From a virus (Duplodnaviria; Caudoviricetes), in IMG/VR virus record IMGVR_UViG_3300027804_000063, positions 1-64,000 of that record: a stretch of 64,000 nt of DNA; one strand, 5' to 3'. The notes under the pieces were generated by a model that saw only the letters and a program-made list of their open reading frames with translations, ran no database searches and was not told the DNA's origin. Every line of letters starts with the position of its first letter. Within the stretch, counting starts at the first letter, position 1. Positions 9,650 to 29,892 of this stretch are shown here, piece by piece. A program made the translations under genes and the position numbers.

Positions 9650-9651
9650 CC

Positions 9652-13810: not shown

Positions 13811-13835
13811 GCATATACGCCACCGTTCGGTTTGG
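13811..13835 (-). repeat. CGCCACCGTT box copy 5
   Basis: gcatata-CGCCACCGTT-cggtttgg. Confidence 0.9.
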
Positions 13836-16535: not shown

Positions 16536-16586
16536 TTTCTGCTCCTTTGTTTAGTAGGTTTATTCGGGTGTTTGCCCTTCCCCCAT

Positions 16587-17251: not shown

Positions 17252-17292
17252 TACTTCTCCTTGTTTAGTTAGGTTTATTTGCTTGCCCCAAC

Positions 17293-17313
17293 ATTATGCA
17301 TGATGGGTGTAAC
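17293..17313 (-). promoter_or_regulatory. ACACC-box promoter P3
   Basis: GTTACACCC-N6-CATAAT. Confidence 0.65.
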
Positions 17314-17351
17314 ACAGTTATTTTTTAGTAGGTATTTTTTATTACTCTCAC

Positions 17352-17380
17352 ATTATATATCCGACAAAAACAAAAAGCAA
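17352..17380 (-). promoter_or_regulatory. sigma-A-type promoter
   Basis: TTGCTT-N17-TATAAT. Confidence 0.7.
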
Positions 17381-17478
17381 CTATTCCCCAAAACTATTTA
17401 GACCTAAATACGGAGCGATATTTAGAGCGAAATCTAGAGCGATCACTCAGCCCGACCAAATGCGATCCGTATTCAGGT

Positions 17479-17503
17479 TTATATGCGCCACCGTTCAGGT
17501 TAG
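17479..17503 (-). repeat. CGCCACCGTT box copy 6
   Basis: ttatatg-CGCCACCGTT-caggttag. Confidence 0.9.
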
Positions 17504-17574
17504 ATGCGAACAACCAACCATTGCTAACTAACAATCGTTGCAAACTAGTCCCGCATCAACAAAGCCCACCCCAC

Positions 17575-17605
17575 AGCCCCGCCCCCCGCCGCAAGGCGCG
17601 GGACT
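17575..17605. repeat. AGYCCCG dyad 1
   Basis: AGCCCCGC-N15-GCGGGACT. Confidence 0.8.
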
Positions 17606-17610
17606 AATGC

Positions 17611-17639
17611 TTGCGAACGGCTGTTCGCCCTACTACTAT
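17611..17639 (+). promoter_or_regulatory. sigma-A-type leaderless promoter of the HA-HTH gene
   Basis: TTGCGA-N17-TACTAT-N7-ATG. Confidence 0.65.
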
Positions 17640-17646
17640 CGGGGCT

Positions 17647-18033
17647 ATGACAATCTCACGAACAGACAGATGGCAATACCGTTTCAATGCGCTCGTGCAA
17701 TACACCAACAGAACAGGAACATCACTCGTTCCCGCGACACAGGTTGAAGTGTACGAAGGGAAGAATGTCGCGCTCGGCGCATGGGTCGCGTACAACCGTC
17801 AGCAGTATCGCGCAGGAGAACTACCGCTTGAGCGAAAGCAAGCGTTGGAGCAACTCGCAGGTTGGCATTGGGAGAAGCAGAAACCTGGCAGACGCTACGA
17901 CATGACGCGAGACGCAGAGATCGCGAAGCGTTATCAGAGTGGTGAGCGCGTAGGAATGATCGCAGACAGTTTCAATCTGTCACGCCAACGGGTTCATCAA
18001 ATCTTGAAAAAGGTTTCATCACCAAATGTCTGA
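17647..18033 (+). CDS. helicase-associated (HA) domain plus C-terminal HTH protein
   Basis: W...F.AL..Y....G...VP...LG.WV...R...L..ERK..LE.L..W, then IADSFNLSRQRVHQI; apparently leaderless ATG. Confidence 0.75.
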   Translation: MTISRTDRWQYRFNALVQYTNRTGTSLVPATQVEVYEGKNVALGAWVAYNRQQYRAGELPLERKQALEQLAGWHWEKQKPGRRYDMTRDAEIAKRYQSGERVGMIADSFNLSRQRVHQILKKVSSPNV

Positions 18034-18370
18034 TTACGGTCATCAACACGACAAGCGCGATCATAACGCTTGGAAAAAGATGAGCGAATGGTCTCACAGC
18101 GTTCCTGATTACGAACTTGACGCATTGTGGGATGAAGACATTTGGAGCACAAATCTGCCACCTGTTGAGACGGGCGCACAGAAGTTTGGGAAGTTTCTTG
18201 TTGCGACACTCGGTCTCTTTATTGGTATCGCGCTCGTATCGGTTGTTTTCTATCAACTTGTTTTAGCGTTGGGTTTCACTGACATCACTTTCCGTGAAGC
18301 GGTGATCGCAACTGTGTGTGTCGCGTTTATTCGTTACGCCGACGCAGGAGTGATGAAACAACTCCGATAA
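18026..18370 (+). CDS. membrane protein
   Basis: two C-terminal TM helices. Confidence 0.6.
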   Translation: MSDYGHQHDKRDHNAWKKMSEWSHSVPDYELDALWDEDIWSTNLPPVETGAQKFGKFLVATLGLFIGIALVSVVFYQLVLALGFTDITFREAVIATVCVAFIRYADAGVMKQLR

Positions 18371-18499
18371 ACACATCAGGACGCACCCTTGCGAGTGCGC
18401 CCTGAGCGGAGAAGCGAAAGGTGAAAGGAGAAGTCCTTTCGTTCCTCTAGCGATACAGAATAACACATGAGTTATATGTCGTTCTGAAGCGATTAGGTT

Positions 18500-19993
18500 T
18501 TACCCCAATCGCTTTCCATTTAGTTTGAGATATGTTTCCTGCCAACATCTCGGATACCAACGGTTCGGTTTCTTGCCGACTGACAGTTGCTTCAACACCG
18601 CGAGACCGTCAGTGACATTGTGTGCCATAAACACTTTGTGCTTCAAGACTTCTTTTATGCAGTCCATTGCCAAGATGTCGTGGTATCCACCGTATTGACC
18701 ACCTGTGCCAAGACCGTGAACCTTGCCGTCAGTCACCCACACGATCGGTGTGGACGAACGCTTGCGTTGCTTCACTGCCCAACGGATTGCTTCTCCGTCT
18801 ACGCCGTTACCGCCGTTACGCTCGGGAAGTTTGTCAATCATTTTCCCGTTTTGTGCGAGAACGAGAAGGTTCGGTTTGACATTGTTTCGGTCTGCTGAAT
18901 AAACCGCAACCGTGCAACCTGGACTTGCTTCCGTGATGTCAAGGATGTCTTTGTTAGTGAAAGACATTGAACCTGAACCGTCAATCAGAACGATACCGCC
19001 GTTGCCTTTCTTGTATCGGTCAAACACACGCTTTTCGGGATCTGCGAGTGCGTTACCAATCCTGCGAGGGTTGCGACCCATGTTGCTCGCGACACGCTTG
19101 CGACCGAGACCGCCGTGCGCCTTGCGAGTGAGTGGGAGTGTTCCGACAATGAGTTTGCCCCAACTTGGAACAACACCATTGTTGCCCTTGCCGACTTCCG
19201 TAGGTCGTACCTTCTTTGGGTCTGCCTTTGGTTGTGCGTTGGTTGCGCCAACACCGCCCTTCCCGTCTTTCGTTGGGTCGTCCTTCTTTGGTTCGCCTTC
19301 GCCTTCCTTCTGACCGTTAGGTTCGTCCTGTTGCTCGTCCTCATCCTGTTGTGGTGGGTTCGCAAGACGATCTACCCACTCCGCAATACGCTCGGTGTGA
19401 GAGAAACCGAAAGGTGCAAGACCGTGACGAGGGTCTACTTCGGTTGAACCGAGTGTTCCCGTCTTGAACGCCTTGACAAACTCTTTCTCAACCGCCTTGA
19501 TGATCTCGCGCAATGTTTTCGCCCACGCAGGGTTCACACGCTTGACACCCGTGAGAAAATCTTTGCCACCACCACAGATTGAGTAACCGACCGCGATATA
19601 AACCGCCTGTGTCCAATCACCTGCTTCTGCGATACGAACGCCTGACGCTTTCTCACTTCCGTCCGCGAGGAGATCAACATCAAATCCTGCTTTCTTGATA
19701 AGAAAGTTCACGCGCACTTCCTCAACGACAGTCATTGCTTCCTCTGTCGCAATGCCACGCGCAATCCATTTCGGAAAATCATCCGCAGGTGAAAATCGTG
19801 CGTGTGCCATTTCGTGCGCACGGATAACTCGGTCAATCTGCTCGTCACCAACAGGAACAACCATGTGCTTCGTGACGACATTCGTCATTGGTTTGCCACG
19901 CACAGGTGCGCAAGTGTCTACGCGCCATACACCTGCGTCCTTATCTTTACGACCCAACATTTCGGGAAGTGGTCTGATTTCTACTTTCTGCAT
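18500..19993 (-). CDS. HExxH peptidase-like plus VWA domain protein (CobT-like partner)
   Basis: AHEMAH; LIDGSGSM MIDAS; VTDG. Confidence 0.8.
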   Translation of the reverse strand: MQKVEIRPLPEMLGRKDKDAGVWRVDTCAPVRGKPMTNVVTKHMVVPVGDEQIDRVIRAHEMAHARFSPADDFPKWIARGIATEEAMTVVEEVRVNFLIKKAGFDVDLLADGSEKASGVRIAEAGDWTQAVYIAVGYSICGGGKDFLTGVKRVNPAWAKTLREIIKAVEKEFVKAFKTGTLGSTEVDPRHGLAPFGFSHTERIAEWVDRLANPPQQDEDEQQDEPNGQKEGEGEPKKDDPTKDGKGGVGATNAQPKADPKKVRPTEVGKGNNGVVPSWGKLIVGTLPLTRKAHGGLGRKRVASNMGRNPRRIGNALADPEKRVFDRYKKGNGGIVLIDGSGSMSFTNKDILDITEASPGCTVAVYSADRNNVKPNLLVLAQNGKMIDKLPERNGGNGVDGEAIRWAVKQRKRSSTPIVWVTDGKVHGLGTGGQYGGYHDILAMDCIKEVLKHKVFMAHNVTDGLAVLKQLSVGKKPNRWYPRCWQETYLKLNGKRLG

Positions 19994-20054
19994 TTTTCCT
20001 TCTTTCGTTTCTAGGTTTATGTCTCTTGCTTAGGGAGACTTACTTACACCCCCC

Positions 20055-20075
20055 ACTTTAGGTGAGGGGTGTAGT
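20055..20075 (-). promoter_or_regulatory. ACACC-box promoter P4
   Basis: ACTACACCC-N6-TAAAGT. Confidence 0.7.
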
Positions 20076-20083
20076 GGGGTTTA

Positions 20084-20827
20084 TTAGACCGCGACCTTGT
20101 TGATCGCGATTGCGTCCAAGACGCTTTCTGCCTGTCGCCCGAACACCATTCGTGCGCTGTCCTTGTCACCAAGTGTCTTTCGCAGTTGGTCAAATGCGTA
20201 GAAGGTGCGGAGTGAAATCCTGCGCTCTCCTGCGTCTGCCATACGAACCGCATACTCACGCAAGTCTGCCGACAACTTCTTGAGTGCGTCAGGGTGAGGT
20301 TGGTTGATACGGATTGCGACAGGGAAACGGTCTTTCAACGCTTCAGGGAGTTCCTCCATTGTCTCAATGTTTGTAGTCATAACGACACTGAAACCGTCTT
20401 TCGGAGTGATCGTGCGTCCGTTTTCAGGACTTTCCCACTTCGCGCTTTCAGGACTATCGGTGAACGCGAGAAGTGTTGCGAACACATCCGCACCTGCCTT
20501 GTCAATCTCGTCAATGACGAGACGACCACCACGCAAACCGTCACCCTTCCATGCGGACACTGCCTTACCGTCCACCCAAGACCAACCGCCTTCGCCGTTC
20601 ATCTTGTAGTGACCCTCAACTTGCGCATTGGACATATCCTCTGTGCAAATGAGACGGAACGCTCCTGCGGTGACATCACCGTAGTTGAGACCTGCGAAGG
20701 TCTTGCCCGTTCCTGGGGGTCCGAACAGGATGAGACGATCTACTCCTGCCTTGAGTGCGTTCTCAACATCCTTCCAACACTGCGGAAGGTCGTTGCGCAC
20801 CTCTCTCTCTGCGACTTGCTGTTCCAT
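20084..20827 (-). CDS. MoxR/CbbQ-NorQ-type AAA+ ATPase
   Basis: GPPGTGKT, VIDEID, TTN, ALKDRF. Confidence 0.88.
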   Translation of the reverse strand: MEQQVAEREVRNDLPQCWKDVENALKAGVDRLILFGPPGTGKTFAGLNYGDVTAGAFRLICTEDMSNAQVEGHYKMNGEGGWSWVDGKAVSAWKGDGLRGGRLVIDEIDKAGADVFATLLAFTDSPESAKWESPENGRTITPKDGFSVVMTTNIETMEELPEALKDRFPVAIRINQPHPDALKKLSADLREYAVRMADAGERRISLRTFYAFDQLRKTLGDKDSARMVFGRQAESVLDAIAINKVAV

Positions 20828-20899
20828 TACTTTCCTTCTTTCTCCGAACCTTGTTCGGTCTAGTTGCTTATTTCTAGGTTTACTTGCCTTACACCCCCA

Positions 20900-20920
20900 A
20901 CATTACATTGGGGGTGTAAC
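20900..20920 (-). promoter_or_regulatory. ACACC-box promoter P5
   Basis: GTTACACCC-N6-TAATGT. Confidence 0.75.
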
Positions 20921-20929
20921 AGGGTTTGA

Positions 20930-21337
20930 TTACGCGACTTGCGCTTCTGCGTCTGCGTTGCTCTCGGACTTTGCGCCCTTGAGTTCCGTGACACGGATTT
21001 GCTCGTATGCGGTGATCGTGGTTACTGCGTCTGCGACATCTGCCTTGATGACACCGACTTCCACTGCTGACTTGAACTTCTTTCCGTCCACTGCGAACTT
21101 GGTGACAGTCTTGAACACCTTGTCCGAAACGAGACCCTTCAAGAGTTCCACGCTGTATGAAGGACGCTCGCCCCTCACAACCGCGACCTTTACTCCGTCC
21201 ACGACTGCGTAGTCCACGCCTTCCTTTGCGAGTTCCAACTTGAAACTTGCTTCCGCTTGTGCGAGTTCCTGCTCTGCGATCGCCAATGCTTCACGCTTTG
21301 CGAGAACTGACTTCGCTGTTGAGGTGATTAGTGCCAT
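20930..21337 (-). CDS. hypothetical protein
   Basis: AAGGAG RBS, promoter upstream. Confidence 0.7.
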   Translation of the reverse strand: MALITSTAKSVLAKREALAIAEQELAQAEASFKLELAKEGVDYAVVDGVKVAVVRGERPSYSVELLKGLVSDKVFKTVTKFAVDGKKFKSAVEVGVIKADVADAVTTITAYEQIRVTELKGAKSESNADAEAQVA

Positions 21338-21384
21338 TTGATTTTCTCCTTATGTTTAGTTGGTTTATTTGCTTCTTGTCCACC

Positions 21385-21405
21385 ACTCTATATGAGGGGT
21401 GTAAC
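21385..21405 (-). promoter_or_regulatory. ACACC-box promoter P6
   Basis: GTTACACCC-N6-TAGAGT. Confidence 0.75.
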
Positions 21406-21448
21406 ACGGTTATTTCTATTTCGTACTGACTAACTATCTATGATAGAT

Positions 21449-21477
21449 AGTCTAGTACCACTTTTGGGGGATTGCAA
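21449..21477 (-). promoter_or_regulatory. sigma-A-type promoter
   Basis: TTGCAA-N17-TAGACT. Confidence 0.6.
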
Positions 21478-21480
21478 CCT

Positions 21481-21756
21481 TTATTCCAAGATTTTTGAGA
21501 TTTCTTGATCCATATTGGTCACAAACTCCTGAACCACATTTTCCTCATATTCCGCAACGATTTGTCGCGCAATCGGGTTCAAGACCCGTGCGAGTTCCTG
21601 TGCTGTCCCTAACCGTTCTAACAGGGTTTCCTTGCGGTCGCTGTCGGTGTCAGGGTTCGTGGACTCTTTTGCGTCCTTGATTACCTGCCCACCTAATGCG
21701 GTTTGCAGAAGGAATACCTGATCTGCTGTTAGTCGGACTTCGTATCGCTTTGCCAT
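21481..21756 (-). CDS. hypothetical protein
   Basis: ATG 21756 after AAGGA. Confidence 0.6.
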   Translation of the reverse strand: MAKRYEVRLTADQVFLLQTALGGQVIKDAKESTNPDTDSDRKETLLERLGTAQELARVLNPIARQIVAEYEENVVQEFVTNMDQEISKILE

Positions 21757-21838
21757 TCTGTTTCCTTTCGGGTTGTTGTTGTTCATACCTTTATTACGCA
21801 ATGAGCCCCCAAAAGTGTGCGGTGTTTTTTAGAAAATC

Positions 21839-21871
21839 TTTTCCACAGGGTTATCCTCAACCTGTGGATAA
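21839..21871. promoter_or_regulatory. DnaA-box cluster (3 boxes)
   Basis: TTTTCCACA, TTATCCTCA, TGTGGATAA (perfect). Confidence 0.6.
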
Positions 21872-21882
21872 CTCGTTGAGGT

Positions 21883-21907
21883 TTATATACGCCACCGTCC
21901 ATGTTGG
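21883..21907 (-). repeat. box copy 7 (CGCCACCGTC variant)
   Basis: ttatata-CGCCACCGTC-catgttgg. Confidence 0.85.
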
Positions 21908-21981
21908 GAGATCACAGTCAGGATCGCTGATTCGTGCGCGCGCCCGCGCGTGAGCCCCGCATGGTTCTTCGCGAGAAGAAG

Positions 21982-22013
21982 AGCCCCGCACCCGCATCTT
22001 CAAACGCGGGACT
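21982..22013. repeat. AGYCCCG dyad 2
   Basis: AGCCCCGC-N16-GCGGGACT. Confidence 0.8.
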
Positions 22014-22017
22014 AGGC

Positions 22018-22057
22018 AAAAAGAAAGGGGAGGCTTTCGCCCCCCCTCTTATTTTTT
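22018..22057. terminator. intrinsic terminator (bidirectional)
   Basis: purine/pyrimidine stem with TTTC loop flanked by A and T tracts. Confidence 0.7.
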
Positions 22058-22059
22058 GA

Positions 22060-22197
22060 TTACTCCCAAGTAATCATTCCGTTTTCTGAGATGTAGGTTG
22101 GGAGTCCCATACTTTTGAGTTCCTCGTATGTGTAGGGATCTTTTTGGTTTTTGTTGATGTGATCAACATATCCCTTGTTTCTTTCTGCTTCTGTCAT
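22060..22197 (-). CDS. micro-protein (45 aa)
   Basis: MTEAERNKGY...ITWE; AAGGAG RBS, own promoter and terminator; not in ORF track. Confidence 0.65.
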   Translation of the reverse strand: MTEAERNKGYVDHINKNQKDPYTYEELKSMGLPTYISENGMITWE

Positions 22198-22236
22198 TTC
22201 TTCTCCTTGTTTTAGTTGTTCTTCCTTACATATATA

Positions 22237-22257
22237 ACATTACTGTAAGGGTGTTGC
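22237..22257 (-). promoter_or_regulatory. ACACC-box promoter P7
   Basis: GCAACACCC-N6-TAATGT. Confidence 0.75.
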
Positions 22258-22366
22258 ACAGTATTGACGCACGGAGAACCTCAAAATGTGTATGTCACAC
22301 TTTATCTAACTAAGTGCGTTATATGTATGTAGGCAACAACGCCTACCAAAGCGTTAGGAGACGCAG

Positions 22367-22510
22367 TTGGAAATCAACTACGAAGCAATAAAAGAAATGC
22401 GAAAAGCGTTGAAGCAAGAAATTGCAAGAAACGGGATCAACGAAAACAACAGGCAGTGGGTTCACGAACTGCGAGTTGCGATTGAACTTCGCGAAAGCGG
22501 TGTTTACTAA
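22367..22510 (+). CDS. micro-protein (47 aa)
   Basis: AGGAG RBS, TTG start, followed by a terminator; not in ORF track. Confidence 0.55.
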   Translation: MEINYEAIKEMRKALKQEIARNGINENNRQWVHELRVAIELRESGVY

Positions 22511-22517
22511 AACCACA

Positions 22518-22557
22518 AAGAAAACCCCAACTCAGAAATGGGTTGGGGTTCTTTTTT
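22518..22557 (+). terminator. intrinsic terminator
   Basis: AAGAAAACCCCAAC/GTTGGGGTTCTT stem then T-run. Confidence 0.75.
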
Positions 22558-22591
22558 GCGTTAGCCCCGCGTCTGATGCACGCATTCGCGT

Positions 22592-22622
22592 AGTCCCGAC
22601 ATCCGATGCGCGTAACGGGACT
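22592..22622. repeat. AGYCCCG dyad 3
   Basis: AGTCCCGA-N15-ACGGGACT. Confidence 0.7.
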
Positions 22623-22632
22623 GAGACAAAAT

Positions 22633-22671
22633 AAAACCCGCAGAAGATGGCTGAGTTCTTCTGCGGGTTTT
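22633..22671. terminator. intrinsic terminator (bidirectional)
   Basis: AAAACCCGCAGAAGA/TCTTCTGCGGGTTTT. Confidence 0.8.
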
Positions 22672-22674
22672 GAT

Positions 22675-22884
22675 TTAGTTGGTTGTTTCGCGGACTACCT
22701 GAAACCGATCGCCTTCTTCGGTGATCATTCCGAGAGTGCTTCCGTTGTCCCATTTGATGTGAACCGTGCCAAGTCCGTCAATATGGGTGACGACACCTTC
22801 GTCTCCCCACTTCAACTTCGTGTACGGGTCGCCTGACCGCATAAACATTACGCGCTTACCGACATAACTTTCTTTGTCTGACAT
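22675..22884 (-). CDS. DUF4314-like small protein
   Basis: D.Y..L..G..G.V..ID.LG.VH..WDNGS.LG. Confidence 0.75.
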   Translation of the reverse strand: MSDKESYVGKRVMFMRSGDPYTKLKWGDEGVVTHIDGLGTVHIKWDNGSTLGMITEEGDRFQVVRETTN

Positions 22885-23108
22885 TAGTAGACCCCGAACG
22901 ATATTCCGTCTGATGTCAGTCCGAACAACGCACCTGCGTCGTTTCCTTCTGTGTCCATTGACGGGTAAAGAATAGTTCCGCTAGAGAGAACGAGAACCAT
23001 TGGTATCTCATTCTTGCGCCAACCTTCTTTGTCCATTTCTGCTTGTGTCATTGGTCGGATATCAACAACTGTTGATCCGACAATGGTGTCGTCTATTGTG
23101 TCGCTCAT
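22884..23108 (-). CDS. hypothetical phage protein
   Basis: AAGGAG RBS; DTEGNDAGALF. Confidence 0.7.
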   Translation of the reverse strand: MSDTIDDTIVGSTVVDIRPMTQAEMDKEGWRKNEIPMVLVLSSGTILYPSMDTEGNDAGALFGLTSDGISFGVY

Positions 23109-23151
23109 TTACTTTCTCCTTTTGTTTAGGTTTATGTGAAGCGTCTCGCTG

Positions 23152-23406
23152 TTATGCGGACGCTTTTGGAAGTTTGAGACCTTTGAGTTCGCGTTCCAAC
23201 TCTGCGCCCTCAACATTGTTCATTAGGTCAATGAGTTCATCTAACCAAGTCGCAACGGGGATAGGTAGTGGTGTGACACGGAGATAGTCGTCGTACTTGG
23301 TGAGAACGCTATCTATCTCGCTCACTAATCCTGCGCCTTCAACATTGCGAACAATGTCAAAGATGTCGCGCAACAACTGTTTCCAATCTTGGTTTACTGT
23401 TTTCAT
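23152..23406 (-). CDS. hypothetical protein with internal repeat
   Basis: NVEGA(G/E)L repeated; RBS and promoter upstream. Confidence 0.65.
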   Translation of the reverse strand: MKTVNQDWKQLLRDIFDIVRNVEGAGLVSEIDSVLTKYDDYLRVTPLPIPVATWLDELIDLMNNVEGAELERELKGLKLPKASA

Positions 23407-23439
23407 TTGTGCTTCTCCTTTGTCTAGGTTTATATAACT

Positions 23440-23460
23440 ATCTTACTGAAGCGGTGTGAC
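23440..23460 (-). promoter_or_regulatory. ACACC-box promoter P8
   Basis: GTCACACCG-N6-TAAGAT. Confidence 0.75.
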
Positions 23461-23464
23461 AGGG

Positions 23465-23596
23465 TTATCCTGCCATCACCCGACTTGCTCCCACGATCCA
23501 CAACAACGACACTTCCAACGCCCAATCCTTTTCAGGGTTCTGAGTGTAGAACTCGTACCATTGCTTCGCTTCGTTGAGACATTCGCTGACTGACAT
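23465..23596 (-). CDS. micro-protein (43 aa)
   Basis: MSVSECLNEAKQW; TAATG coupling; not in ORF track. Confidence 0.45.
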   Translation of the reverse strand: MSVSECLNEAKQWYEFYTQNPEKDWALEVSLLWIVGASRVMAG

Positions 23597-23736
23597 TATT
23601 GACCATCTCCATTCCATCTGAACCCACGACATTCTTGCTTGTTACGCTTCTTGCGCTTGTCTGCGACACGCTGTGCCTTCAGGATATTCCTATCCGCGAA
23701 CGCTTGACGGTCTGCGTCATTCCATTTCTTATTCAT
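23596..23736 (-). CDS. basic micro-protein (46 aa)
   Basis: MNKKWNDADRQAFADRNILKAQRVADKRKK; TAATG both ends; not in ORF track. Confidence 0.6.
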   Translation of the reverse strand: MNKKWNDADRQAFADRNILKAQRVADKRKKRNKQECRGFRWNGDGQ

Positions 23737-24218
23737 TAGAACCTTCTCCTGTTTCTCCGCCACTCGTGGCAGTCGTGCTTTGCTTGCTCATCTACTTCTG
23801 CTTGCGTCATCTTTGCCGTGATCAACGGACGGTATCCGCACGAGTTACACGCGATACCGAGATATTCGGTGACACCTTGTGCCAACTGATATCCGTGAAC
23901 CGCCGTGTTGCCGTGTGTTCGTTCGTTGAGATAAACCGTGATGAACACTTCACAGTTCGCGCAACCGATGATCTTGACATCTTTGCCGTTTGTCGGTGCT
24001 TGCTTCGTAAAGAAGTCAAACTTGAAGTGCTTACAGGTTTCGCATTTGTCGTCAAGTTTGCGTGACTTGACGATTTCTGTTTTGCCCTCTGTGATTACTG
24101 AATACTCTTGTGGGAGTATTCCTTTCAAGGTCGCTTGATGAATGAGGTGATTTCGCACCAACCATTCCGTGTAAGGCTTTGCAACCTTTGCGACTTTGGT
24201 CTTTCCTTTCTTTGCCAT
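23736..24218 (-). CDS. multi-CxxC Zn-binding protein
   Basis: three CxxC pairs plus HDC; AAGGAG RBS. Confidence 0.7.
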   Translation of the reverse strand: MAKKGKTKVAKVAKPYTEWLVRNHLIHQATLKGILPQEYSVITEGKTEIVKSRKLDDKCETCKHFKFDFFTKQAPTNGKDVKIIGCANCEVFITVYLNERTHGNTAVHGYQLAQGVTEYLGIACNSCGYRPLITAKMTQAEVDEQAKHDCHEWRRNRRRF

Positions 24219-24261
24219 TTCTAGTTTCTCCTTGTTTAGGTTTATCTAACTCGCTACTTAC

Positions 24262-24282
24262 ACTATATACGCACGGTGTCAT
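24262..24282 (-). promoter_or_regulatory. ACACC-box promoter P9
   Basis: ATGACACCG-N6-TATAGT. Confidence 0.7.
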
Positions 24283-24353
24283 ATAGTTTGTGTCATTTAT
24301 AGACCTAATAATAAATATACTTCTAATATATCAGGGGCATAATATACCCACAC

Positions 24354-24374
24354 TTATCCACAGGCTGTGAATAA
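24354..24374. promoter_or_regulatory. inverted DnaA-box pair
   Basis: TTATCCACA (perfect)-ggc-TGTGAATAA. Confidence 0.65.
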
Positions 24375-24420
24375 CTAGATCACCCAACTCCACTTAGCAC
24401 TAAATACAAAAACACAGCAG

Positions 24421-24445
24421 TTATATACGCCACCGTTCAAGTTGG
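24421..24445 (-). repeat. CGCCACCGTT box copy 8
   Basis: ttatata-CGCCACCGTT-caagttgg. Confidence 0.9.
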
Positions 24446-24494
24446 GGTTGATGTCACGACATCACGACAGCAGATCCGCGATCCGCCAGCCCAC

Positions 24495-24526
24495 AGCCCC
24501 GCGCCCATCTTCCGATGCGCGGGACT
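24495..24526. repeat. AGYCCCG dyad 4
   Basis: AGCCCCGC-N16-GCGGGACT. Confidence 0.8.
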
Positions 24527-24801
24527 CACAAGTCTCGGCTTGTTCTTCGGGACTGTAGGATGCGTTTATGCCCCATCCATTCCGTCCGCGTAAAGAATCC
24601 CATAACTTGCAGATCGTTGAGATCATTGACGCGATCGCTCAAACTGAGCCCGAACTATTTGGCGTTGGGACTGCAACACTTATGCCCGTCAAGCACTCCG
24701 CACGGCTCACACTTGCAGACGATCTGCACCCCTACTATCAGCCCCTAACGCAAAATAGCCCGCCTACCGAACGGCAGACGGGCTAATTGTTTGAGTGCTA
24801 G

Positions 24802-25053
24802 TTACTTCGGTTGCGCCTCACTCCATAGGTGTCTAAATACGAACTTCGGAATCGGATGCCCGTCGTTCGTAAAGTAGTAACCATTCTCAAGTGTTGAATG
24901 ATCGGGAATAGTTACGATCTGACGCTTGCTAACACGCCCACCATACCAATACCCAACGATAAAGATATTGTGATCGCTTGTCGTCTCCCATTGCCAACGC
25001 GACTTACCGACATACCCCTTATAGGTAAGTTGAGTGCTCACGACTGCACCCAC
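24802..25053 (-). CDS. hypothetical protein
   Basis: co-oriented ORF; start uncertain (GTG 25041 possible). Confidence 0.5.
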   Translation of the reverse strand: MGAVVSTQLTYKGYVGKSRWQWETTSDHNIFIVGYWYGGRVSKRQIVTIPDHSTLENGYYFTNDGHPIPKFVFRHLWSEAQPK

Positions 25054-25289
25054 CCGTTAGGTGTGCGCATTGCGTATAGATACGGTATGACGCTCAGAAT
25101 GAGATCGGTAAGTGCCTGCGACACTTCATCCCGACTAGTTGCCATACCGTGAATGAAGTCGTCGTCAATGCGCCCATGAATGAGATCATCCACGATCGCG
25201 CCAATAACTCCGATACCTATCGCACCTATGCCGAGATAATTCTCCGCAAGGACTTCGCTAATAGATACCGTCTCCGTAATGTCTGACAT
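25038..25289 (-). CDS. hypothetical protein
   Basis: GAAGGG RBS-like sequence upstream. Confidence 0.55.
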   Translation of the reverse strand: MSDITETVSISEVLAENYLGIGAIGIGVIGAIVDDLIHGRIDDDFIHGMATSRDEVSQALTDLILSVIPYLYAMRTPNGWVQS

Positions 25290-25393
25290 AAATTGCCCTT
25301 CGTGTAGTAGTTGCTTAGTAATCGGCTTACGCCTTGTGCCTAGTTGGAATTGAATCCCACGCCGAACGCGCTAGGCGACTCACCTAGTGAGTG

Positions 25394-25831
25394 TTACGCA
25401 CCGTGTGCGCCGTCTCCACCCATTGAGATAAGTGTCGCACGCTCCCACACTTCACGCACTTGCTCACTCGCACCCGAGAGACCATTGTTGAGATAGTCAA
25501 TGACACGACTCTCAAACTCGCCCAACGCCTTCGCGCTATAACGCGCGATCGGTTGAGTTGCAACCGTGCCACACGGATAGTTCACCGTGTCAAAAATTGT
25601 GAACTTCACGACTTCGTAACCGTTGCCACGATCGTAGTGTGCATAACGGATATGCGCACTGAATTGCTTGCGATCTGAATCATGCGAGATACTCAACTTG
25701 ACTAGTCCGCCAACTTGCTCACCGTCAAACTGAATTGACTGCGAAGGACTGCGCCAAGTGTAAGAGACTTCACGATCGCCCACCTTGCGAGTGGCTTGTG
25801 CGAAGTTCGCACCTTGAGTAATAACCGACAT
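25394..25831 (-). CDS. hypothetical protein
   Basis: AAGGGAG RBS and promoter upstream. Confidence 0.7.
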   Translation of the reverse strand: MSVITQGANFAQATRKVGDREVSYTWRSPSQSIQFDGEQVGGLVKLSISHDSDRKQFSAHIRYAHYDRGNGYEVVKFTIFDTVNYPCGTVATQPIARYSAKALGEFESRVIDYLNNGLSGASEQVREVWERATLISMGGDGAHGA

Positions 25832-25880
25832 TATTTGCTCCCTTGTCTAGTAAATATAAGCGGAATTGCTTATACAAATA

Positions 25881-25901
25881 ACTATACGCAAGGGGTGTTG
25901 C
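25881..25901 (-). promoter_or_regulatory. ACACC-box promoter P10
   Basis: GCAACACCC-N6-TATAGT. Confidence 0.75.
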
Positions 25902-25988
25902 ATAGTGTGACTGCACACGATCAGGTAAATAAGTGAGATATCGCTCATCCGCCATAGCCCGAGATCGGTATCTACGATCGTAGATATT

Positions 25989-26013
25989 TTGTATCCGCCA
26001 CCGTTCAGGTTGG
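25989..26013 (-). repeat. CGCCACCGTT box copy 9
   Basis: ttgtatc-CGCCACCGTT-caggttgg. Confidence 0.9.
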
Positions 26014-26058
26014 GGACTTCAGATCCGCCCCTCCCCGCGACGCGCGTCCGCGCCCGCG

Positions 26059-26090
26059 AGCCCCGCGCGCTGAATTGTTGGCGCGGGACT
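26059..26090. repeat. AGYCCCG dyad 5
   Basis: AGCCCCGC-N16-GCGGGACT. Confidence 0.8.
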
Positions 26091-26139
26091 GATGCGGTTT
26101 ATGCCATCTTCAGACAGTTGATCTTCAGATCAGATCAAA

Positions 26140-26170
26140 AGCCCCGCGCGCGTCTTCGTGTGACGGGGCT
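26140..26170. repeat. AGYCCCG dyad 6
   Basis: AGCCCCGC-N15-ACGGGGCT. Confidence 0.75.
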
Positions 26171-26171
26171 G

Positions 26172-26495
26172 TCAAGTCCAAATGATCTTCGCAACTCCCC
26201 AGCGCTGCAGAGCCGCTTCGCATCTTTTACACGGCTTTGAGTTGGCGGGCAAACCATTGGCAAGAACTCGGGCAACATACACAGTCGCACCCGATATTTG
26301 AGACCCTGCCGATATCGCTCCTGCTATCTCTGCGTGGATATGCGACCTACGCCAAGCGTGGTGAACATCTCCGACACGCTTATTGGTGGCTTTGGCTACA
26401 ACACGCCCGTTACGCACCACAACGCACCCGTGGCGGTGTCTACACCTGCTCTGAAGGGCTGTAGCGACCGCTGTGCGGAGATGATGCTTGGACAT
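26172..26495 (-). CDS. Zn-dependent cytidine/dCMP deaminase-family protein
   Basis: HAE and PCKRC motifs. Confidence 0.85.
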   Translation of the reverse strand: MSKHHLRTAVATALQSRCRHRHGCVVVRNGRVVAKATNKRVGDVHHAWRRSHIHAEIAGAISAGSQISGATVYVARVLANGLPANSKPCKRCEAALQRWGVAKIIWT

Positions 26496-26531
26496 AGGTT
26501 GGCATAGTTTATATGCCGACCCTAGAAACGC

Positions 26532-26567
26532 AAAAAGCCCCCACCCCGACAGAAGGGTGAGGGCTTG
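26532..26567 (-). terminator. intrinsic terminator
   Basis: GC stem followed by TTTTT on the - strand after gene 26582. Confidence 0.7.
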
Positions 26568-26581
26568 CGCCTGTGTGTGGA

Positions 26582-26998
26582 TTACGCCGAGAGTGCTTCC
26601 ACCTTCGCGCGAACATTCGCGATATTGGTGAAATGCTTGTCACCTGCGGGGGTGGTGAAACCGACCTTGATGACACCGTAACCGTCCTCTTGGGGTGCGA
26701 CCCAAAAGACCACGCCGACCGTGCCCTTAGGAACTTTGCGCCCCTTGAACACCTCAACGGTTTGACCCTTGACGATTTCGCCGTTCGCGATCGCCTGTGC
26801 GAGACGCTCCTCGTTGAGACGGACGACTTCCGCCCAACGCGCGACCTGCTCCTCCGTGTGCCTGTGTGGTTGCTTCCAACGACCCACACCACCCTCGTAT
26901 ACCTGACCTGCGCGCTCCGCGAGATAACGCACACCGTTACGGTTAGTGTCCCAAAACACCTCCGCACCGCACCCGCGACAACTGATTACTTTGCTCAT
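26582..26998 (-). CDS. hypothetical protein (CxxC, C-terminal SH3-like)
   Basis: AAGGAGG RBS; own promoter and terminator. Confidence 0.7.
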   Translation of the reverse strand: MSKVISCRGCGAEVFWDTNRNGVRYLAERAGQVYEGGVGRWKQPHRHTEEQVARWAEVVRLNEERLAQAIANGEIVKGQTVEVFKGRKVPKGTVGVVFWVAPQEDGYGVIKVGFTTPAGDKHFTNIANVRAKVEALSA

Positions 26999-27031
26999 AT
27001 GCCCTCCTTAGGGGTCTAGTAGTTACTACAG

Positions 27032-27052
27032 ACATTACGCACAGGGTGTCAC
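27032..27052 (-). promoter_or_regulatory. ACACC-box promoter P11
   Basis: GTGACACCC-N6-TAATGT. Confidence 0.75.
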
Positions 27053-27079
27053 AGAGTGTGACTTGGATAAACCTAAACG

Positions 27080-27174
27080 GCGAAGCCGCTTTGTGACCGT
27101 GCGAAGCCGCTCGGCAGCGTCACCAAGCCGCTCGGCAGCGCTGGCTTTCCGCGTTCCGCAGCGCTGGCTTTCCC
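27080..27174 (+). repeat. overlapping short direct repeats
   Basis: GCGAAGCCGCT x2, AAGCCGCTCGGCAGCG x2, GCAGCGCTGGCTTTCC x2. Confidence 0.75.
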
Positions 27175-27181
27175 TCCTCAC

Positions 27182-27212
27182 AGCCCCGCAAACCGCGTAA
27201 CTACGCGGGACT
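27182..27212. repeat. AGYCCCG dyad 7
   Basis: AGCCCCGC-N15-GCGGGACT. Confidence 0.8.
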
Positions 27213-27289
27213 AGCAGGTTGGCGACAAACAGTAGCGTTTGGGGAGGACCTCCCGCAGGACCTGACGCGGAGGACCCGACGAAACGTTC

Positions 27290-27410
27290 AAAAAACGTCA
27301 GTTTTTGCACGTTTTTGCTGGTTTTAGAAAAACGCGTTTTTACAACTTTTTTTGCGGTTTTTGAAAGCCTTATTTTATAAGGGTTTTACGGAGGGTGTTT
27401 TTGGGAACTT
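27290..27410. other. phased A/T-tract array (intrinsically bent DNA)
   Basis: T-tracts at about 27302, 27312, 27322, 27337, 27347, 27358, 27374, 27384, 27397. Confidence 0.65.
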
Positions 27411-27499
27411 TCCCACCCAACTCAGAAAACCATCAAAAACGTCACTTTTTGATCAACCCGGCTGCCAGGTCCGTCTTCAGCCCGGGAAGATGCGGTTAC

Positions 27500-27530
27500 A
27501 GTCCCGAAGATCTGTCGCTGATGCGGGGCT
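27500..27530. repeat. AGYCCCG dyad 8
   Basis: AGTCCCGA-N15-GCGGGGCT. Confidence 0.75.
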
Positions 27531-27730
27531 CAGAAGAGAGTTGGTGCGTCATCAAACGCGTTACGCGACTCTGTGCAGATGCGGTGGGCGTAACCAAGTG
27601 GGGTTGAAGGGTTGCGAGGTGCGCCAATGTATCTTCCGTCTTTGTGTTCTATCCAAGACAGTATCTTGACGCAGTATTGGGTGTTGAGGGTGTCAAACTC
27701 TATGTTGCAGATGGAGCAGGCGACTTTCAT
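27530..27730 (-). CDS. small Zn-binding hypothetical protein
   Basis: CSIC...HRIC. Confidence 0.55.
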   Translation of the reverse strand: MKVACSICNIEFDTLNTQYCVKILSWIEHKDGRYIGAPRNPSTPLGYAHRICTESRNAFDDAPTLF

Positions 27731-27749
27731 GCCTGTCAGACTAGCGGAT

Positions 27750-27914
27750 TTAGTTTTGTGGTGCGCTGTCTACGGACAGTTCGTTGTGTGACCGTAGGTC
27801 TAACAGCAGATCAACCATCTCTGCGGAGGACACTAGTTCCCGACCCGAGATGGTTTTGATCGCGTTGTCAATGACCTGAACAACTGTGAGTTCTTTTACT
27901 GTATCTGTGACCAT
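27750..27914 (-). CDS. micro-protein (54 aa)
   Basis: MVTDTVKELTVVQVIDNAIK; not in ORF track. Confidence 0.5.
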   Translation of the reverse strand: MVTDTVKELTVVQVIDNAIKTISGRELVSSAEMVDLLLDLRSHNELSVDSAPQN

Positions 27915-28351
27915 TGTTCATCGTCCTCAATGATTTCTGATGCGCTGAGAACCATGCCGTCTAGTTCAAAATCAACACAGTTCAACCAACCATCAACTAT
28001 ACCGTCTCCGTATGCGTAGAGATCAAACCACGCATTATTGACCCACTCAATGCGCTCTGCTTCATCTGCTTCACGCAACTTTTGGTCGGTGTCAATACCT
28101 GCGCGCATGAGACGGTCGCAGTAACGGATAACTTCAGGGTCGTCACCACGCTCTCGTGCTTCTTTGCTTTCCCAAAGGTTGAGACGCATTTCGCCGTCGC
28201 AGAACACTCTGACTTCACGGTCGCCCATTGTGACGGTCGCGATGTGTTGATGTGCGTTTGCGTCCCAAACATAGAACGCAGGGTCTTGTCGGTGCTTCCG
28301 ATCTTCGTCTGTCACCTCATAGGTGATTTTGATGTCGGGTTTAGTTTCCAT
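27896..28351 (-). CDS. hypothetical protein
   Basis: AAGGAG RBS; WVNNAWFDL. Confidence 0.7.
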   Translation of the reverse strand: METKPDIKITYEVTDEDRKHRQDPAFYVWDANAHQHIATVTMGDREVRVFCDGEMRLNLWESKEARERGDDPEVIRYCDRLMRAGIDTDQKLREADEAERIEWVNNAWFDLYAYGDGIVDGWLNCVDFELDGMVLSASEIIEDDEQWSQIQ

Positions 28352-28380
28352 TTACTTCTCCTTGTCTAGTAGTTGATGCA

Positions 28381-28401
28381 AGAATACCCGAAGGGTGTCG
28401 C
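28381..28401 (-). promoter_or_regulatory. ACACC-box promoter P12
   Basis: GCGACACCC-N6-TATTCT. Confidence 0.75.
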
Positions 28402-28405
28402 AGGG

Positions 28406-28561
28406 TTATTCGTAAAAAGGTTCAGCGGGTTTCTGTCTCGGGGTCGGGTTGTTTCGTGCGAGTTTGCGTATCTGATACAACGCAAACAAAATAGGGACAC
28501 CGAAGAACGCCACCAAGATCATCTTGATACCCAAGACGACACCTAAGACACGCTTATTCAC
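28406..28561 (-). CDS. small single-TM protein
   Basis: GTG start; VLGVVLGIKMILVAFFGVPILFALY; not in ORF track. Confidence 0.5.
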   Translation of the reverse strand: MNKRVLGVVLGIKMILVAFFGVPILFALYQIRKLARNNPTPRQKPAEPFYE

Positions 28562-28766
28562 GGACACCAACCAAGTTCAACGCTTCGTCTAGTTGCATTG
28601 TGGTTTTGATGGAGTGATCGCCGTCGTATGCGACTGTCACAAAGTTCGCACCTTGTGACGGGTCTTTCGCTAACGCACAGATTTCTCCGTATGCCTGAAC
28701 GATCGCGTCTAAATGATCGTCTGCCTCATACACCATCTGCCAAGTGACCAAGTATGATTTGCTCAT
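28554..28766 (-). CDS. hypothetical protein
   Basis: ATGA overlap at 28763-28766. Confidence 0.6.
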   Translation of the reverse strand: MSKSYLVTWQMVYEADDHLDAIVQAYGEICALAKDPSQGANFVTVAYDGDHSIKTTMQLDEALNLVGVRE

Positions 28767-28975
28767 ACGCTGAGGTCTGCCTGCCACGCGAACATTGGGG
28801 AAACGCCAAGTTCATCTTTGATACAACGGAGGGTAACTTCTGTATCAACTTTGTACTGTTCCAACAACGCGAGGGTGTCTGCGAGTTTGAGTTTGTCGCT
28901 CTCTATCTGAGAACGAAGTTCATAAACTTGCTTTGACAAACTCTCAAATGTTTGCTTGTTTCTACGGAGTTTCAT
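28763..28975 (-). CDS. coiled-coil hypothetical protein
   Basis: heptad pattern; TAATG coupling. Confidence 0.6.
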   Translation of the reverse strand: MKLRRNKQTFESLSKQVYELRSQIESDKLKLADTLALLEQYKVDTEVTLRCIKDELGVSPMFAWQADLSV

Positions 28976-29361
28976 TACTTGTCTGCCTTTCGGTCTGCTT
29001 GTGGATCTCTTACTTCATACCGACGACCCTCACGCTTGATGAAGATGTCGGGTCTATCTGTAACAACCTTGCGTGCTGTCGCTTCGGATACTTCTCCGAT
29101 TTCTGCGAGTTGCTTGATAGTCACCAACTCAAAGACATTGTCTTTCGCCCACGACAAAATGTCGTTCTTGCCGTCTTGCGCCGTGCGCCAACCTTCGCTG
29201 TGCTCTGCGTTCGCCAACAGTTCCGCTTTGATGTGTGACGGAACAATGTCACGGACACGCTTCGCCACATGTGCAACCCAAACGGGTGTTCCGTATACAC
29301 GGATCGCTTCTGTGACTTCGCGTATCGCGCTGTCAAGTTCTGTGTCTAGTTCGTTACTCAT
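28975..29361 (-). CDS. hypothetical protein with C-terminal HTH-like segment
   Basis: ATG 29361 lies 7 nt after TATAGT (leaderless); TIKQLAEIGEVSEATARK. Confidence 0.65.
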   Translation of the reverse strand: MSNELDTELDSAIREVTEAIRVYGTPVWVAHVAKRVRDIVPSHIKAELLANAEHSEGWRTAQDGKNDILSWAKDNVFELVTIKQLAEIGEVSEATARKVVTDRPDIFIKREGRRYEVRDPQADRKADK

Positions 29362-29368
29362 AGTATCT

Positions 29369-29389
29369 ACTATACGCAACGGGTGTGAC
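29369..29389 (-). promoter_or_regulatory. ACACC-box promoter P13 (leaderless)
   Basis: GTCACACCC-N6-TATAGT-N7-ATG. Confidence 0.8.
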
Positions 29390-29405
29390 AAAGTGTGCGA
29401 TGCCA

Positions 29406-29669
29406 TTAGAACAAGTCCTTTTCGTCTTGAAGAAAGTCAGGAACAACTAGTCCCTTTTGCGCCTCTATACACGCACTCTCCGCTTCGTATATTGACTTCT
29501 TGACTTGCGCCAATGCGTTCTTGTATACCGCACTTTGGTTTGCTTCGTCGGTTCGTAAAAGTTCCGACACAACAAGATCGTATGCAGTATTCAGAGATCG
29601 CAATACCCGACTAAGACTGAGATAGTCCTCGTCAAAGATTTGTTTGATCGTGTTCTGTGTTTCAGTCAC
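29406..29669 (-). CDS. hypothetical protein
   Basis: GTG start below a sigma-A-type promoter. Confidence 0.6.
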   Translation of the reverse strand: MTETQNTIKQIFDEDYLSLSRVLRSLNTAYDLVVSELLRTDEANQSAVYKNALAQVKKSIYEAESACIEAQKGLVVPDFLQDEKDLF

Positions 29670-29716
29670 TATCTTTTTATACCCCTTTCAGAGTTCTAGG
29701 TTTATCTAACACTACC

Positions 29717-29745
29717 ATTATATATACCCCCACAACAAAAAGCAA
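29717..29745 (-). promoter_or_regulatory. sigma-A-type promoter
   Basis: TTGCTT-N17-TATAAT. Confidence 0.7.
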
Positions 29746-29786
29746 CCCCACCCCAAACATTTGTTTGCCCACCTCCCCAAAAACTT

Positions 29787-29811
29787 TTATATCCGCCACC
29801 GTTCGGTTTGC
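29787..29811 (-). repeat. CGCCACCGTT box copy 10
   Basis: ttatatc-CGCCACCGTT-cggtttgc. Confidence 0.9.
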
Positions 29812-29861
29812 AGAACACTTCTGAGATCCCTCCGCGCCCCCGCCCGTCGGCTCAGGCTCAC

Positions 29862-29892
29862 AGCCCCGCGTTTCTCTTCAGATGACGGGGCT
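29862..29892. repeat. AGYCCCG dyad 9
   Basis: AGCCCCGC-N15-ACGGGGCT. Confidence 0.75.

Follow-up and report, generated by a model that had tools for sequence, protein, structure and literature searches.

A conserved, repeated intergenic module of half-site dyads and an asymmetric box in the genome of a putative large actinophage

A stretch of 64,000 nucleotides, hereafter referred to as the window and representing the first 64 kb of a 74,185-bp viral contig (IMG/VR record IMGVR_UViG_3300027804_000063), carries a repeated module in a block of leftward genes. Read in the direction of transcription, this module consists of two or three copies of the half-site AGYCCCGC, which form dyads, a spacer, and an asymmetric box of about 27 bp. 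The element is real and strongly conserved, no description of it was found for this phage group, and it is best filed with the repeated regulatory motifs known from actinobacteriophages. With moderate confidence, we interpret it as a transcription-control module that would combine operators with a directional site for RNA polymerase, and that would be placed between the transcription units of a leftward early and replication block. A preliminary description of the window had presented the element as an undescribed multi-copy cis-element that might serve, among other possibilities, as a 'regulatory hub'. This view fits with the conservation of the module in all relatives examined.

The box, written as CGCCACCGTT on the plus strand, was matched 13 times with no more than one mismatch, compared to 3.8 matches expected, and none of 100 shuffled sequences reached this number. 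Ten of the 13 matches share an extended consensus of about 27 nt that reads tCCAAaCyGAACGGTGGCGtATAtAAa on the leftward strand, with AACGGTGGCG as the core. All ten have CGCCACCGTT on the plus strand, i.e. they are co-oriented with the leftward genes, and they are located between 12.0 and 29.8 kb, eight of them in non-coding positions within a densely coding block. The five boxes that had been described before are all real. They are located at 29794-29803 (extended motif at approximately 29786-29812, heading the first leftward unit), 25996-26005, 24428-24437, 21890-21899 (variant GACGGTGGCG) and 17486-17495. However, five was an undercount, because a cluster of five further boxes at 12.0-13.8 kb had been missed. 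Within this cluster, a small conserved hairpin with a T-run precedes the intergenic box 13818-13827, and a short leader with a ribosome site separates this box from the ATG at 13792, 25 nt downstream. Box 13269-13278, with the ATG at 13260 located 8 nt downstream, overlaps the TGA stop codon of gene 13278-13469, while box 12325-12334 belongs to a conserved non-coding region of 570 nt (12093-12662). The remaining two boxes are found in real genes, in both cases in the frame N-G-G: box 12736-12745 within a conserved 46-aa open reading frame (ORF; 12662-12802), and box 12017-12026 within the sequence for the N-terminus of an O-like replication-initiator protein, at +28 to +37 of the predicted leaderless mRNA.

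The second element is also overrepresented in terms of its 7-nt version AGYCCCG, of which 50 copies were found compared to 9.4 expected. All 50 copies fall within 12.0-41.4 kb of the 74-kb contig. There are 12 perfect dyads, nine of which have an interior of 17-18 nt. Viewed as 8-bp half-sites, the geometry is that of an inverted pair spanning 31-32 bp, with an extra half-site placed 28-29 bp away in direct repeat. The dyads that belong to boxes include AGCCCCG-N17-CGGGGCT at 29862-29892, a pair of dyads at 26059-26090 and 26140-26170, a dyad at 24495-24526 with an extra half-site at 24548-24554, and a dyad at 21982-22013 with an extra half-site at 21953-21959. At 17547-17646, two single half-sites (17547-17553 and 17640-17646) and a dyad (17575-17605) bracket the promoter of a gene for a putative regulator that is discussed below. 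Other copies have no box nearby, namely a half-site plus dyad at 22563-22622 and two dyads at 27182-27212 and 27500-27530, the latter starting at the stop codon of gene 27530-27730. As a separate observation, the GC skew of the contig flips from -0.50 to +0.34 near 11 kb (9000-12000) and from -0.33 to +0.36 near 41-43 kb (40000-44000), and every AGYCCCG half-site of the contig falls between these two flips.

Six of the ten boxes are combined with half-sites in a fixed order. The succession of box, linker and AGYCCCG dyad that had been proposed for five sites holds at each of them, and it is also present at box 12325, where half-sites extend from 12384 to 12622. In the six modules, the distance from the start of the box to the first half-site is 59-68 nt, which corresponds to a spacer of 49-58 nt. 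The claim of a linker that is often rich in GATC and CCGC agrees with the composition, since the spacers contain 18.7 GATC per kb compared to 4.5 per kb genome-wide and have 60-77% GC in four of the six modules. The segments to the left of the boxes are indeed AT-rich (34-41% GC versus 49% for the block). Leftward promoter-like sites, which had been noted for four boxes, are found there at distances of 49-166 nt. Downstream of box 29794 this is TTGCTT-N17-TATAAT (29717-29745), and downstream of box 17486 there are two tandem predicted promoters at 17293-17380, namely TTGCTT-N17-TATAAT (17352-17380) and ACACCC-N6-CATAAT (17293-17310). The sites downstream of box 24428 (24262-24279) and box 25996 (25881-25898) belong to an ACACC promoter-like class, (GTGTT)ACACCC-N6/7-TAnnnT, which lacks a -35 element and has about 12 members before leftward genes between 16153 and 29386. 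Further examples of this class are located at 20055-20072 and 21385-21402, and members of the class are often followed by the leader word ATAAACCT described below. The host-type promoters thus placed differ between modules. DnaA-box matches are present in two modules, as previously claimed: TTATCCACA at 21863-21871 (minus strand; kept in six relatives) together with TTTTCCACA at 21839-21847 (plus strand) in module 21890, and an inverted pair of TTATCCACA and TTATTCACA at 24354-24374, also kept in relatives, in module 24428.

On the other side of the modules, canonical terminators of the leftward strand were identified. T-tract terminators end the unit upstream of module 25996 (26535-26566), precede module 24428 (24756-24785), and lie 11 nt upstream of the dyad 22013-21982 (22024-22049), while another terminator (18376-18405) follows gene 18500-19993. 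The module boxes are located behind these four terminators and ahead of the unit's own promoters, which, judged by the predicted signals, is the classical terminator-then-promoter order. None of the ten boxes is overlapped by a predicted promoter, and only the box at 12017 in the initiator gene lies downstream of one.

To place the module in a wider context, we used the 497-aa protein encoded by 18500-19993 as a query against IMG/VR, which retrieved 13 related loci with 66-88% identity. Our contig probably represents about half of a large uncultured actinophage genome, because some of these loci sit on contigs of 133-145 kb that are rated 91-100% complete. In four relatives with such long contigs, the 9-mer core of the box occurs in 9-10 copies, on one strand and in a single block of 17-20 kb, and outside this block only strays at chance level were observed. 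The box positions in relatives are syntenic with those in the window and their order is identical in all of them. In every genome, half-sites are found upstream of the same six of the ten boxes, and the nearest half-site usually ends 47-62 nt before the box. Alignments of orthologous modules revealed a common order in all six close genomes: a terminator (where present), a dyad of the form AGTCCCGC ... GCGGGGCT, often a third half-site CGGGRCT 28-29 nt further on, an unalignable spacer of conserved length, the box, and then DnaA boxes and promoters. Module order, which the preliminary description had named as a check, and module positions are therefore conserved in every relative examined.

The same holds at larger distances. 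We compared close relatives (about 80% protein identity) with two more distant lineages, represented by the loci L010 (57-66%) and L034 (about 47-50%). The box core ACGGTGGCG and the half-site AGTCCCGC are invariant in all three lineages, and the order of dyad, spacer, box and promoter persists down to 47-66% protein identity. The flanks of the box do diverge, with tATAtAA being replaced by GAAAGC, so that L010 and L034 read TGACGGTGGCGGAAAGC. A search with the triple half-site pattern yielded 28 stretches on 18 viral contigs, compared to about 0.3 by chance according to our own rough estimate, and most of the newly found contigs have a box 53-88 nt downstream. Both elements are thus under strong selection across the whole phage group.

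The features of the dyads point to a protein site rather than a hairpin. Among 50 distinct dyads from seven genomes, 41 have an interior of 17-18 nt. The interior lengthens the stem by a mean of 1.7 bp, compared to 0.7 bp for shuffled interiors, and position 3 varies independently between the two arms (C..A was observed three times versus about 2.5 times expected). The fixed spacing, the conserved arms, the indifferent centre and the direct repeats together suggest that a protein recognizes these sites on double-stranded DNA. The arms do differ by gene direction, with AGTCCCG making up 82% of the left arms and CGGGGCT 72% of the right arms. We rejected the dyads as intrinsic terminators, as they are not followed by a T-run on either strand and true T-tract terminators exist alongside them, in most cases a short way upstream. 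One relative, L006 (IMGVR_UViG_3300027151_000013), deserves mention in this respect: in its dyads at 4553, 6277, 7982 and 12393, CCCGC...GCGGG is replaced by CCCGT...ACGGG. Such a concerted, genome-wide change of both arms is as expected if the sites track a changed binding protein.

The best candidate for this protein is encoded by 17647-18033. The product of this gene has 128 aa and combines an HA domain with a helix-turn-helix (HTH) at its C-terminus, and the gene is a real one because substitutions are in excess at the third codon position. It has a predicted leaderless promoter (17611-18033 for promoter and gene, plus strand), with TTGCGA at 17611-17616, N17, TACTAT at 17634-17639, N7 and the ATG at 17647. 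This promoter, TTGCGA-N17-TACTAT, is conserved in six genomes; half-sites are located just upstream of its -35 element and, in most genomes, also between the -10 element and the ATG. The gene adjoins a dyad cluster in all three lineages, and its product retains the recognition helix LSRQRVHQI unchanged at identities as low as 47%. A structure model of the protein was confident (mean predicted local distance difference test score of 84), and searches by fold and sequence revealed a generic HTH likeness to the resolvase C-terminal domain, LuxR/RcsB, KorA and the Sleeping Beauty PAI domain. Among the PDB matches there was no sequence match to solved repressors, including the solved stoperator repressor. 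Based on adjacency and conservation, we consider the dyads to be candidate operators of this HA+HTH protein, which may also regulate its own gene.

The box is not a host-type σ70 promoter, as there is no -35 hexamer 16-18 nt from the TATATA, which moreover becomes GAAAGC in other lineages. Nor does it resemble a Shine-Dalgarno sequence, since GGUGG pairs poorly with the anti-Shine-Dalgarno sequence and its spacing varies, or the start of a conserved small ORF (GTG GCG ...), since the peptides that would result range from 2 to 52 aa and are unconserved. The box is a DNA or RNA word and not a coding feature. A search of bacterial genomes with the 17-mer box of the GC-richer lineages gave only single, scattered matches in unrelated genomes, and therefore no sign of a host regulon or prophage. 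A literature search on the motif strings returned only primers and unrelated sequences.

The distance between box and start codon ranges from 2 to 235 nt, apart from the two copies inside ORFs. Start codons follow the boxes of the 12-14 kb cluster at 8-25 nt, and four clustered boxes of L010 at 8-26 nt. Altogether, the boxes of this cluster and its L010 equivalent are 2-27 nt before start codons, and no other recognizable promoter is present there. Gene D, which starts with the ATG at 13260, has no Shine-Dalgarno sequence. Its distance to box 13269 is kept at 7-9 nt in relatives, and in four relatives its start codon stays 4-6 nt from the transcription start that we predict from the box, as would be expected for a near-leaderless mRNA. 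The module boxes run straight into ATAAACCTnAAC, a word that the leaders behind predicted standard promoters also carry near their 5' ends. The leader word ATAAACCT(A)AAC has 18 copies in the window compared to 1.7 expected. With few exceptions, they read in the sense of the gene and directly precede the ribosome site, at 20-25 nt before the start codon (e.g. 10262-10269, 16556-16563, 17271-17278, 20013-20020, 23128-23135, 24238-24245 and 29698-29705), and this conserved word also occurs after module boxes and within the initiator gene.

Taken together, the module may be the standard control region in a family of large freshwater actinophages, in which two independent, sequence-specific cis-elements would be combined with ordinary signals. 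Reading leftward, the end of the upstream unit, often marked by a T-tract terminator, would be followed by two or three AGYCCCGC half-sites, a length-conserved spacer of about 50-60 bp, the 27-bp asymmetric box, and a leader with host-type promoters (and DnaA boxes in two modules) that leads into the genes. The half-sites would serve as operators of a phage DNA-binding protein, most probably the HA+HTH protein autoregulating its own leaderless promoter. The box would act on RNA polymerase in one direction, most likely as the core of promoters that lack a -35 element and form a phage-specific class. ACGGT would then provide A(-11) and T(-7) of a -10-like element and GGCG the discriminator, and transcription would start 7-8 nt downstream at a conserved A, with the promoter being used together with a phage factor.

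Several observations weigh against this explanation. ACGGT would be a very poor -10 element, and one orthologous site carries AACGGCGGCG, which is without the T. A phage sigma factor was not found by our search, nor was any member of the NusG family, including NusG paralogues, in four genomes. There was also no match to a T7-type RNA polymerase, but this is a weak negative since the PF00940 control matched nowhere. In addition, the block already has about 12 promoters of the ACACC class and 3-4 consensus promoters, and ten more are not obviously needed. Two boxes are located in coding sequence, one of them 27 nt past the start codon of its own gene. This latter copy, inside the initiator gene and behind a leaderless promoter, would suit a transcribed or polar element better than a promoter. 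With respect to the half-sites, the putative link to the HA+HTH protein is based on adjacency and conservation, and the ribbon-helix-helix protein encoded by 10903-11088 and other basic proteins may also be candidates. Lastly, many dyads start right after stop codons or terminators, and their dominant arm combination is T..G (30 of 50), which allows a G.U pair on the sense-strand RNA only. A role of the dyads as hairpins at RNA 3' ends is kept in play for these reasons.

Within a transcription-control model, we prefer the promoter reading of the box to that of a polar stop or pause site, which we regard as an unlikely alternative. It would be a stoperator-like roadblock, where a phage protein bound to the asymmetric box stops RNA polymerase from one side, thereby insulating units or shutting the block off late in infection, and where the dyads are separate operators. 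The consensus of the L5 stoperators begins with GGTGGC, a sequence that is also present in the core of the box, and we count this in favour of a roadblock. All ten copies of this asymmetric site have the same orientation relative to transcription, and the copy at +28 of the initiator mRNA fits a transcribed site. Like the L5-type stoperators (PMC9283540), the copies occupy short intergenic spaces, positions that overlap a stop codon, or the interior of ORFs. On the other hand, the module boxes lie just past T-tract terminators and before the unit's own promoters, where they would meet little traffic and would not silence the unit. Moreover, no box coincides with a predicted promoter, and there are only 10 sites, all in 18 kb of a genome of about 140 kb. 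An integrase was not found, and the PDB matches of the HTH candidate gave no likeness to the solved stoperator repressor. An action at the RNA level, which seems improbable to us, would make the box an mRNA word, such as a processing site or a SAS-like site for a translation or stability factor, and the dyads sense RNA hairpins that protect or define 3' ends. The box-to-ATG distance of 2-235 nt and the lack of Shine-Dalgarno complementarity in the box are difficult to reconcile with such a role. Five boxes would seldom be transcribed, being located upstream of their units' predicted promoters and behind terminators. The dyad loops are long (15-16 nt), fixed in length and barely self-complementary, position 3 shows no covariation, half-sites also occur as direct repeats, and no Rfam family was matched. 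What speaks for the RNA level, besides the above-mentioned position and T..G arms of the dyads, is that the elements are co-oriented with the mRNAs, that the boxes at 12-14 kb are near start codons, and that the SAS/ESAS repeats have a similar layout of a box with an upstream inverted repeat (PMC3203893).

The preliminary description had also proposed shuffling of cassettes and repeated origins, and we consider it very improbable that the modules are replication or recombination sites, be it as multiple origins, as PeSL-like shuffling joints or as strand-specific nick or Chi-like sites. In an origin variant of this idea, a transcript from the box would prime into the AT-rich segment, as at T4 or T7 origins. 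The idea draws on the conserved pairs of DnaA boxes in two modules, the four-fold enrichment of GATC in the spacers, iteron-like repeats at module 25996 and its orthologues, and the peak of box density by the O-like initiator gene and the conserved 570-nt non-coding region. All copies are on one strand, and the layout of terminators and regulatory repeats recalls PeSLs (PMC4122927). With regard to shuffling, we identified 118 similarity breakpoints between the window and five relatives, 15 of which fall in modules, compared to 7.3 expected under a uniform and 10.9 under an intergenic null. Clean single-gene indels, for example at 14376-14635, 16180-16532 and 22674-22883, are not flanked by boxes, all relatives share the same box order, and tyrosine or serine recombinases (Phage_integrase and Resolvase domains) were detected in none of four genomes, three of which are at least 91% complete. 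Shuffling is therefore unsupported. The sequence common to the modules amounts to just 27 nt plus 8 nt and is too short for homologous exchange, and the strong intergenic bias and 27-nt context of the box would not be expected of Chi-like words. The claim of repeated origins likewise finds little support, because DnaA boxes are absent from four of the six modules and there are no tandem iterons. Clustered initiator sites with an unwinding element in each copy were not observed, and the AT-rich segments can be attributed to the promoters and 5' leaders that lie there. Judging by its sequence, the sole place that looks origin-like is located at 12.1-12.7 kb, next to the O-like initiator gene.

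A bolder version of the transcription-control model, which is speculative and in our view doubtful, holds that the invariant ACGGTGGCG may be the site where a phage factor captures or reprograms the host RNA polymerase, and that, jointly with the dyads, it may constitute a new control system of freshwater actinophages. The box could then define a -35-less promoter class that requires one of the phage's two WhiB proteins, which are highly conserved, or it could be an ops-like loading site. Gating would be exerted from a fixed distance of 50-60 bp by the two-domain HA+HTH regulator bound to the resolvase-like dyads of 31-32 bp. If true, this would be a kind of sigma appropriation in Actinobacteria without a described counterpart.

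Some phage promoter classes lack a -35 element and need a phage factor, such as the middle promoters of T4 with their MotA box, the late promoters of T4, and the 23-bp promoters of the T7 type. The box resembles such factor-dependent promoters in being a conserved word of 20-27 bp that is co-oriented with the genes, that stands in tandem with host-type promoters and that follows terminators. However, its sequence is unrelated, and we identified no cognate polymerase, sigma factor or activator. The ops element of the RfaH type, GGCGGTAGCGTG, is located in the non-template strand of the 5' leader and is read by a NusG paralogue. Our box matches it at 8 of 12 positions, but the NusG family was not found in the four genomes, and only one box is located downstream of a predicted promoter. 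Recombination sites of the attC, res or att type would require a cognate recombinase and a variable cassette order, neither of which was observed here.

The nearest described system is formed by the SAS and ESAS repeats of the Cluster K mycobacteriophages (Pope et al. 2011; PMC3203893), the function of which was still untested in 2025 (PMC12699233). We regard these as an analogue and do not consider our element a member of this system. In both cases, an actinobacteriophage carries about 10-19 copies of a short asymmetric repeat, which nearly always have the same orientation and are confined to the non-structural part of the genome. A pair of conserved inverted repeats around a variable centre stands ahead of about half of these copies (here six of ten, in every relative), and the sites are conserved between subgroups even before different genes. 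SAS, however, reads GGGATAGGAGCCC, contains a Shine-Dalgarno core and is located 3-7 bp from the start codon, whereas the box is unrelated, has no such core and is located at 2-235 nt. The ESAS repeats are 17 bp long with a spacer of 4-13 bp and stand immediately upstream of SAS. In contrast, the half-sites described here have 8 bp, a fixed centre of 15-16 bp and a third copy, and they are located 50-60 bp from the box. [quoted passage not shown] Yet, stoperators have 13 bp and more than 20 copies genome-wide, include operators at promoters, and belong to temperate phages with a gp71-type repressor. The box has about 27 bp and 10 copies in one 18-kb block, none at a predicted promoter. Neither an integrase nor, in the screen of the HTH candidate, a recognizable gp71-like repressor was found. 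The PeSLs of T4-type phages (PMC2839356, PMC4122927) are also composites of terminator and promoter signals that are repeated between small, function-unassigned early genes. In these, however, a stem-loop is joined to a σ70 early promoter, and they mark joints of indels and replacements between close relatives. In the present case, what is repeated is the box together with the AGYCCCGC half-sites, host-type promoters follow 49-166 nt further on, and breakpoints are not enriched.

What is known of the large phages of abundant freshwater Actinobacteria comes almost entirely from metagenomes and does not extend to the timing of their gene expression. The module offers an experimental handle in the form of two invariant DNA words, a fixed geometry, a putative regulon of about 10 units, among them the initiator of replication, and a specific protein as the candidate regulator. 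Should the box be a factor-dependent promoter, this would establish a temporal class of genes and a new way to redirect the actinobacterial RNA polymerase. If it is instead a polar stop site, control of the stoperator type would extend to a phage group in which no integrase was found. In addition, the module stands as a further, independent example next to the SAS/ESAS repeats of mycobacteriophages, which still await an explanation.

The O-like initiator gene (11631-12089 including its promoter, minus strand) merits further description. It was assigned by a match to the PHROG 'replication initiation O-like' with an E-value of 1e-17, which covers the C-terminal part only. Its predicted leaderless promoter TTGACC-N17-TAAAGT (12061-12089) is followed by the ATG at 12053, 7 nt on, and this arrangement is conserved in relatives. 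The adjacent 570-nt non-coding region is conserved in blocks across six relatives and contains one box and six half-sites. In some relatives, it has an insertion of 43 nt with an extra dyad. In view of its position beside the initiator gene, this region could be an origin or a non-coding RNA.

The genes between 10.9 and 29.7 kb are leftward and those from 30.6 kb onwards are rightward. Besides many small, function-unassigned genes, the contig encodes two WhiB proteins, a primase-helicase, DNA methylases and a class II ribonucleotide reductase. By protein, the closest counterparts are those of Arthrobacter phages, with about 30% identity for the primase-helicase. A nucleotide search among isolated phages gave no near match, scans for tRNAs and Rfam families in the window had zero matches, and 30 small proteins of the leftward block mostly had no Pfam match. 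Two local features of this block were also noted. The segment 26092-26519, located between a terminator and dyads, is GC-rich (58% GC in the 26-27 kb bin), cannot be aligned to any of five relatives and holds an ORF on the minus strand (26172-26495), which makes it look like a lineage-specific insertion. Furthermore, a rightward ORF of 47 codons (22367-22510) has its own T-tract terminator (22523-22550) and shares 86-91% DNA identity with three relatives. Its substitutions show no clear codon-position bias, and it may encode a small protein or be a non-coding RNA. At the far end of the block, the aforementioned gene 10903-11088 (minus strand) specifies a protein of 61 aa with a sequence pattern like that of ribbon-helix-helix proteins, a second candidate DNA-binding factor, the conservation of which amounts to 84-97% among close and 44-50% among distant relatives. 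The block is adjoined by one of the WhiB genes (10272-10586, plus strand), the product of which is unusually conserved: its amino acid identity is 93-96% in most close relatives and 86% in one, where other genes have 70-85%, and it amounts to 63-80% in the distant lineages.

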